Assembly (NCBI GenBank): GCA_030603365.1
Contig: JAUVXV010000004.1
Location: 224,001 to 288,000, forward strand
DNA from: Candidatus Heimdallarchaeota archaeon
Lineage (GTDB): Archaea > Asgardarchaeota > Heimdallarchaeia > Heimdallarchaeales > Heimdallarchaeaceae
Length of the DNA: 64,000 nucleotides
Reading direction: 5' to 3'
Positions 16,808 to 17,417 of the stretch are shown here, in pieces. Position 1 is the stretch's first letter; each line of letters begins with the position of its first letter. The notes below the pieces were generated by a model that was not told where the DNA came from, did not search any database, and worked only from the letters and a program-made list of their open reading frames with translations. The position numbers were made by a program, and so were the translations under genes.

Positions 16808-16865
16808 GCAATAGAATAAAGAAAACCTTAAAAGAACATAAACGAGAAAAAATCGAGCACTGGTC

Positions 16866-16974
16866 GGGGACTTGGCTCAGTCCGGTAGAGTGGTTGGCTC
16901 CAGAGAACATTGCTTAGGCAATGACCACCGAAGAAACCAATTGGTCGGGTGTTCAAATCACCCAGTCCCCACCA
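16866..16974 (+). tRNA. trnW: tRNA-Trp(CCA) with 32-nt intron at 37/38 (16904-16935); CCA end encoded
   Basis: Acceptor stem GGGGACT/AGTCCCC, D arm GCTC/GAGT, anticodon stem GTTGG/CCAAT with CCA at 16900-16902, T arm GGGTG-TTCAAAT-CACCC. Confidence 0.95.
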
Positions 16975-17049
16975 ATAACACTTATTTTTTAGAACTGTTT
17001 ACAGTTAGTTAAGTGCATTCAAAATAGCTCTCAAAATGTATCTTGGTGA

Positions 17050-17103
17050 GTGATGATTTCAAATTGGTTAGATGATAAATATGATTCATCTCTGGAGAAA
17101 TGA
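17050..17103 (+). ncRNA. Box C/D guide sRNA predicted to 2'-O-methylate C34 and C39 of pre-tRNA-Trp
   Basis: C box GTGATGA 17050-56; guide AATTGGTT 17062-69; D' ATGA 17072-75; C' ATGATTC 17081-87; guide TCTCTGGAG 17089-97; D ATGA 17100-03. Both guides are complementary to the adjacent pre-tRNA, with N+5 falling on C39 and C34. Confidence 0.72.
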
Positions 17104-17156
17104 GCTCAACTAATACATGAGAAAAGCTATTTTGATTTCTACTTTTCATACATTAG

Positions 17157-17417
17157 TTATTCCACAAAAATCTTTTCACAACATTTCACAAAAGAATAAG
17201 GCATTTTTCTCTTTTCAGTATCTATCTCCCACATATAGCTGACATATTCTTGTAGTTCCTTTGGTAATAGTTTGAAAAGAGGAGCTAGTAGAGAATAACC
17301 TATTTTTCTTTGTATAATATCATCTGCCTCTAGAAAAACTACAGCATATTTGTAACAGGGAAATTTATCCTTGATTTCTTCTGATTCTAATATCTGCTTA
17401 GAAGCTTCTTCTTTCAT
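17157..17417 (-). CDS. Hypothetical protein
   Basis: 86-aa ATG ORF filling the gap; no recognised motif. Confidence 0.55.
   Translation of the reverse strand: MKEEASKQILESEEIKDKFPCYKYAVVFLEADDIIQRKIGYSLLAPLFKLLPKELQEYVSYMWEIDTEKRKMPYSFVKCCEKIFVE

Follow-up and report, generated by a model that had tools for sequence, protein, structure and literature searches.

A predicted box C/D guide RNA for C34 and C39 of tRNA-Trp in Heimdallarchaeaceae: a bulge-helix-bulge frame outside the intron and an intronic state within one genus

Introduction

The intron of tRNA-Trp is the textbook example of an RNA carrying its own modification guide. In two papers (PMC7994747, PMC7714728, citing Clouet d'Orval 2001 and Singh 2004), the euryarchaeal pre-tRNA-Trp intron is described as holding a box C/D guide in Haloferax volcanii and in Pyrococcus (sR50). 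In the window considered here (64,000 nt of DNA from a Heimdallarchaeaceae genome), a guide-like element with the same two targets lies behind the tRNA-Trp gene instead of inside its intron. The questions raised by this locus are whether the element is a guide, whether it belongs to the transcript of the tRNA or is a gene of its own, how its RNA could be released, and how the free and intronic arrangements are related.

Box structure of the guide

The dual box C/D guide unit occupies positions 17053-17103 and possesses internal C' and D' boxes and spacers of about 12 nt (Table 1). The C and D boxes can form a k-turn with a 5-bp stem, a 3-nt bulge and the invariant GA dinucleotides 17055-17056 and 17102-17103. 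The earlier note had placed the C box at 17050 (GTGATGA). In the alignment of 21 genus copies this motif is not conserved, whereas RTGAWT at 17053 is; the shifted box is adopted here because it is the only conserved one and gives 12-nt spacers and the 3-nt bulge of the k-turn.

Table 1. Features of the tRNA-Trp gene and the guide region (positions in the window)
Feature	Positions	Strand	Remarks
tRNA-Trp(CCA) gene with encoded CCA end, guide target	16866..16974	+	Rfam RF00005, 53.9 bits; ARAGORN with introns
D-guide target, C32-G37 and three intron bases	16898..16906	+	C34 = 16900
tRNA-Trp intron, 32 nt, at 37/38	16904..16935	+	simple hairpin without C/D boxes
D'-guide target, last intron base and A38-U44	16935..16942	+	C39 = 16937
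BRE/TATA-like motif directly after tRNA CCA, predicted guide promoter	16975..16990	+	overlaps T6 tract
BHB 5' arm	17019..17041	+	outer stem 17019-17029; central helix CTCA 17030-17033; bulge AAA 17034-17036; inner helix 17037-17041
Predicted released RNA, 88 nt	17036..17123	+	EndA would cut after the second base of each bulge
k-turn terminal stem, 5' strand	17047..17051	+	pairs with 17104-17108; 3-nt bulge 17052-17054
C box, variant RUGAWU (ATGATTT)	17053..17059	+	U at position 6 pairs with A1 of the D box; U-A in 20/21
D' spacer, 12 nt	17060..17071	+	antisense element 17062-17069; G17067 selects C39
D' box AUGA	17072..17075	+
C' box ATGATTC	17081..17087	+	U at position 6 opposite A1 of D'
D spacer, 12 nt	17088..17099	+	antisense element 17089-17097; G17095 selects C34
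D box AUGA	17100..17103	+	invariant in 21 genus copies
BHB 3' arm	17113..17135	+	inner helix 17113-17117; central helix TGAG 17118-17121; bulge AAA 17122-17124; outer stem 17125-17135

The boxes are RUGAWU/AUGA and deviate from the consensus RUGAUGA/CUGA, which is present in the homologues of another family. Next to the sheared G-A pairs, U-A replaces G-C in 20 of the 21 genus copies, and between families the first D-box base (C1 or A1) covaries with the sixth base of the C box (G6 or U6). Since U at position 6 of both C and C' stands opposite AUGA, the deviation is a compensated change, not decay, and the former reservation that the D box reads ATGA instead of CTGA is dissolved. The terminal stem, previously called weak, consists of the 5-bp k-turn stem and, further out, a bulge-helix-bulge (BHB) with an 11-bp outer stem; the fold has a z-score of -3.4. 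The U-A-type k-turn may be expected to bind L7Ae, and k-turns of Pyrobaculum are known to vary (PMC6009581). The C' box is poorly kept in one distant copy (G044). A search against Rfam yielded no family at threshold for the guide, only sub-threshold C/D matches.

Pairing with tRNA-Trp and guide-target covariation

Positions 17089-17097 are the reverse complement of 16898-16906 (9 bp), and G17095, the fifth base before the ATGA at 17100-17103, pairs with C34. Positions 17062-17069 are the reverse complement of 16935-16942 (8 bp), and G17067, the fifth base before the ATGA at 17072-17075, pairs with C39. A Watson-Crick pair is thereby found at the fifth base before D and before D', and all complementarities and registers given in the earlier note are present in the sequence. 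Its statement that both duplexes cross an exon-intron junction holds for the D duplex, which includes three intron bases; the D' duplex reaches just a single base into the intron. The D duplex is longer on the precursor than on mature tRNA-Trp (9 vs 7), and the D' duplex is equally long on both forms (8 vs 8), so a preference for the precursor is limited to the D duplex.

In relatives the D guide tracks the first intron bases through three states (AGA/TCT, ATT/AAT, TGA or TGT/TCA), and in all of the 34 cases it forms a longer duplex with the precursor than with the mature form. The D' guide follows changes of the anticodon stem, for example ACCTGTT/AATAGGT and ACCAG/CTGGT. It is decayed in three genus copies (L047, L040 and L048, of genomes G001, G011 and G017), where the plus-five G or most of the pairing is lost, so methylation of C39 may be dispensable, with that of C34 being kept.

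The element could be a chance look-alike in an AT-rich genome with many TGA words, a relic without function, or a guide whose target is another RNA; all Rfam families are sub-threshold, and nine nucleotides of the D' spacer match 23S rRNA (contig C14, 569-577). Across 7.3 million genome positions, one of the 7-nt guide-plus-box halves is found 15 times, the other 32 times and the two together once, against 0.002 expected genome-wide under independence for a pattern chosen after the fact, which argues that the pairing is not due to chance. Conservation and covariation across two families speak against a chance or relic origin as well. The 23S rRNA was rejected as a second D' target because the match site varies in relatives (sequences compared by eye) while the guide is constant. 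These readings are largely refuted by the genome counts and the non-conservation of the 23S site, and hardly any weight is left to them. The guide very probably targets C34 and C39 of tRNA-Trp, as judged from sequence comparison.

The BHB of the pre-tRNA-Trp itself (16898-16935) is relaxed, with a C34-A mismatch in the central helix. Most relatives likewise have the mismatch exactly at C34, and the BHB around the guide is free of mismatches; the C34 mismatch may aid invasion by the guide. Extra tRNA-Trp introns are found at differing sites (T loop, 3' side of the anticodon stem, D arm) in L039, L043, L044, L046 and L233, which points to frequent intron gain at this gene. A tRNA-Trp-like gene with an insert of about 115 nt outside the usual guide register is located around position 1500 of L122 (G053). 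A contig of a 2024 sediment metatranscriptome contains a relative's unspliced tRNA-Trp with leader and trailer (corresponding to 16815-16974); it stops short of the guide and could derive from DNA.

Conservation of the free guide

A free copy of the guide is present in 21 of 25 genomes of the genus. In the other four, one copy is cut by a contig end, two genomes have no guide in their assembled DNA and one has an intronic guide. Four other genera of the family, with six genomes in all, have a free copy in every genome, and another family has one in five genomes. In these relatives, where the earlier note had suggested looking, boxes and guides are kept and the guides follow their targets. Its main proposal, a guide for Cm34 and Cm39 of tRNA-Trp located outside the intron, is upheld by complementarity, conservation and covariation, with methylation itself predicted. 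No guide was detected when five genomes from a distant family that has short introns were searched by pattern. One of two metagenome matches (L232) lies inside a protein gene and was discarded as a chance match; the other (L233) is discussed below.

Two observations concern the surroundings of the guide. An ORF of 86 aa (17157-17417, minus strand), with no Pfam or NCBIfam match, ends about 20 nt from the guide's outer stem and occupies the same place in L233. In G011 a decayed 5' guide half with its own clade's flank and a promoter-like motif is situated directly before the full copy (L040:2260-2520), and the flank of this full copy resembles that of another clade, which suggests replacement.

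Own gene or 3' trailer

The earlier note had left a choice between a neighbouring gene and a 3'-trailer element. The distance between guide and tRNA-Trp is 74-78 nt in five genomes of the genus (this one and four relatives), 2.4-4.9 kb in most genomes and about 8 kb in one. The two lie on opposite strands in three relatives: divergent in two complete genomes and convergent in one. In relatives, also where the guide is kilobases away from the tRNA, the BRE/TATA-like motif precedes the central helix of the BHB by about 48-55 nt, a spacing that resembles that of tRNA genes in the genome of the window. The motif at 16975-16990 is T-rich and, in this genome taken alone, could be the tRNA terminator. 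A sigma-70 promoter scan was set aside, its model being unsuited to archaea.

Several distant guide copies retain CACCA before the BRE/TATA-like motif. In L044 (G022) a second partial tRNA-Trp, beginning at about position 26 and including the intron, is found about 3.7 kb downstream of tRNA-Trp, of the kind that an island leaves behind on integration, and the guide lies beyond this partial copy. The retained CACCA and the second partial tRNA-Trp indicate that islands inserting at the tRNA explain the spacing.

Co-transcription as a 3' trailer of tRNA-Trp, with release by tRNase Z, would fit the same-strand position of the guide, the 44 nt from the tRNA CCA to the outer stem, the short spacing kept in the five genomes and the tRNA-sRNA dicistrons described elsewhere (PMC7994747, PMC3491384). 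It is nevertheless an unlikely reading, considering the separation of 2.4-8 kb in most relatives, the opposite strands in three, the T6 tract between tRNA and guide, and the motif that travels with the guide. Distant and opposite-strand copies together with the travelling promoter-like motif favour the gene over the trailer, and a transcription unit of its own is the simpler reading for the guide, whose transcription is predicted from these arrangements. Read-through from tRNA-Trp may add to guide expression here.

Bulge-helix-bulge frame and predicted release

The earlier note missed a conserved BHB around the guide unit. It has the hBHBh' form: an 11-bp outer stem, AAA, the central helix CTCA/TGAG, AAA and a 5-bp inner stem. 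The strict motif is present in 19 of the 21 genus copies, and the other two have one mismatch. The central helix is paired in all 21 copies and includes a U-A/C-G switch, a covariation of one pair among related genomes. Changes on both sides of the BHB exceed those in all 500 shuffles, a comparison inflated by kinship. In a background test, 16 of 3000 random sites pass as BHB. The same frame is found in two complete genomes (Ca. Heimdallarchaeum) of the family's earliest-branching genus; three of the family's genera, as well as the other family, lack it or have a doubtful one. Since free guides occur in those lineages, a BHB is not needed for a free guide.

Cleavage in the register of Table 1 would yield an RNA close in length to the 85-86 nt of the intronic form described below; a register one base over gives 90 nt. 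The frame could also be a stabiliser or a relic around a genuine trans guide for C34 and C39 that is matured by ordinary trimming without EndA. The free guides lacking a canonical BHB in three other genera and the other family are compatible with this, as are three other C/D candidates of the genome that have no BHB frame (C1:514275, plus strand; C14:94469, minus strand; C15:349840, plus strand). A plain stem would not keep bulges, yet 19 of 21 genus copies, and a distant genus as well, retain the two 3-nt bulges and the 4-bp helix although the sequence of the outer stem changes, and the first bulge base is mostly A. Maturation without EndA is accordingly judged rather improbable, and cutting of the BHB-framed guide by EndA, predicted from the motif, is likely.

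The three other C/D candidates have complementarity to rRNA, and the one on C14 has U at position 6 of its C box opposite a UUGA D box. The C/D scans of the genome missed at least one guide.

Free and intronic states within the genus

The guide is located inside the tRNA-Trp intron only in two relatives, the isolate RS_9_2 (G014) and the independent metagenome contig L233, which have a long tRNA-Trp intron containing it. These intronic guides have AUGA boxes and are fitted to the ends of the introns that hold them. The two contigs share synteny with the window. L233 spans the syntenic site and has no free guide copy there; the G014 contig ends 1.5 kb past tRNA-Trp, and the absence of a free copy is judged on L233 only.

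G014 and L233 are sisters (support 100/99) inside the genus. The depth of G014 within the genus varies by tree: it is nested in the MutS tree (98/98), placed in the genus (100/100) at a less well supported depth (80/96) in a five-protein tree, and open in others. A clade made up of the rest of the genus, with G014 outside it, is rejected by the MutS data (p-AU 0.002). The proteins used (MutS, MutL, eIF2-beta, DUF424 and NMD3) come from the same G014 contig and were chosen because G014 is without an RpoB gene.

The intronic state could be ancestral, with several exits from the intron or with coexistence and differential loss, for example via islands that duplicate tRNA sequences. A classic intronic guide exists in euryarchaea and in another Asgard class, the island of G022 duplicated an intron-bearing part of tRNA-Trp and would offer an easy way out, CU stands at the beginning of the free BHB's central helix as in tRNA C32-U33, and the depth of G014 is not fully resolved. 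Against this, the tRNA-Trp intron is short in every other lineage of the order for which data exist, at least five separate exits would be required, and a single homologous BHB frame is common to the free copies of the genus and those of the earliest-branching genus. Family-type AUGA boxes are present in the intronic core, which scores closest to the family's free copies, and the MutS result also counts against this reading. An ancestral intronic state is therefore regarded as doubtful.

One return against at least five exits, together with the shared frame and the family-type boxes, favours a return into the intron, which is moderately probable. Both ends of the short introns are retained in the long one, so capture at the DNA level appears likelier than reverse splicing. 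The classic guide mentioned above (L152:1500-1720, G110) is intron-borne, with a CUGA D' box and a CCGA D box, and makes an older exit, before the ancestor of the order, plausible. The locus had been regarded as a possible intermediate between intronic and independent guides. The free state is common to the family and another family and the intronic state is nested in the genus, a distribution explained more simply by a return than by a transitional stage.

Enzymes and proposed course of events

The genome encodes fibrillarin, Nop5 and L7Ae, two EndA subunits, one of them with the Tyr-His-Lys triad, and RtcB. An Rnl ligase was not found in the assembly, which is 89 percent complete. In Thermococcus, Rnl circularises ordinary C/D RNAs, and the Trp intron is circularised by EndA and RtcB (PMC9014305).

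In the proposed course, the guide gene would be transcribed independently and the flanks of the precursor would fold into the canonical BHB. Cutting of both bulges by an (alpha-beta)2 tRNA splicing endonuclease would release the 88-nt RNA, in the manner of a tRNA intron without exons, and RtcB would probably close it into a ring. L7Ae would bind the C/D k-turn, with its U-A pair beside the sheared G-A pairs, and the C'/D' k-loop, and Nop5 and fibrillarin would then join. The resulting RNP could act in trans on unspliced pre-tRNA-Trp, giving Cm34 by the D guide and Cm39 by the D' guide. The free BHB-framed gene would be at least as old as the ancestor of the family, and in the clade of G014 and L233 the guide module would have come into the tRNA-Trp intron. 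This account as a whole, from an independent BHB-framed gene through EndA release and trans methylation to later intron entry, is reasonably probable. The stricter version, in which the Heimdallarchaeaceae guide is a tRNA-less intron that is enzymatically excised and circularised and that re-entered the tRNA-Trp intron in one lineage by capture of the neighbouring guide gene, is put forward tentatively, somewhat short of an even chance.

Comparison with known systems

The euryarchaeal Trp intron guide is likewise a dual guide for positions 34 (D) and 39 (D') in the same register, with pairing across the splice junctions. That intron is released by EndA at its BHB and circularised by RtcB (PMC9014305), and action in trans is reported. 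The Heimdallarchaeaceae guide differs in that it forms a gene apart, has a BHB to itself and is without tRNA exons, while its tRNA-Trp keeps a 32-nt intron without boxes. It also differs in its RUGAWU/AUGA boxes, as opposed to RUGAUGA/CUGA, and in the occurrence of both states within one genus. Being outside the intron, the guide is not a member of the intron-encoded sR50 type despite the same targets.

Free sRNAs for the wobble base are described in two papers: Pyrobaculum sR26:C34Trp is listed as a guide for C34 of tRNA-Trp (PMC6009581), and Pyrococcus guides exist for C34 of tRNA-Leu and tRNA-Met (PMC7994747). A non-intronic Trp guide is, given this listing of sR26, probably not new in itself. 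These sRNAs are similar in targeting C34, that of Trp included, and in their core of about 50 nt with k-turn and k-loop; in contrast, dual guides to one tRNA are called rare there, and neither a BHB frame nor linkage to the target gene is mentioned alongside them.

Processing at a BHB is known for non-tRNA RNAs: pre-16S and pre-23S rRNA, the permuted SRP RNA of Thermoproteus (PMC4731332) and the 5' UTR intron of HVO_1309 (PMC7714728). In a Haloferax circRNA survey no free C/D RNA was reported at a BHB (PMC7714728). The likeness consists in a leader and trailer that pair into a BHB, cutting by EndA, joining by RtcB and an excised ring; the product in Heimdallarchaeaceae would, unlike these, be a methylation guide. 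Many archaeal C/D RNAs reportedly lie near BHB-like elements, as computed by Berkemer et al. in 2015.

Dicistronic precursors of a tRNA and a C/D sRNA also have the sRNA gene directly behind the tRNA gene, as in tRNA-Val/sRNA8 of Nanoarchaeum equitans (PMC3491384) and in others (PMC7994747). In those precursors tRNase Z releases the sRNA, which directly adjoins the tRNA. Here it is the target tRNA that lies next to the guide, spacing and strand vary, and the guide has its own promoter-like motif and BHB. A literature search, mostly outside subscription papers, found none on C/D RNAs of Asgard archaea and none on a switch between intronic and free Trp guides.

Significance

Mobility of archaeal guide RNAs has been proposed, with the route left open (PMC3491384, PMC4731332). 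The locus is of interest mainly because the splice-site frame is conserved and because one genus shows both states. Both arrangements at the same locus form a natural pair for the movement of guides between intron and free gene, which the two states point to. The same pair bears on the maturation of free guides by the splicing endonuclease and on the activity of RNPs with U-A-type k-turns. The host belongs to an archaeal group that is often positioned near the eukaryotes, and eukaryotic snoRNAs commonly reside in introns; descent is not implied. If the stricter version of the proposed course is true, a self-guiding intron would have arisen again in this genus via capture of a neighbouring guide gene.
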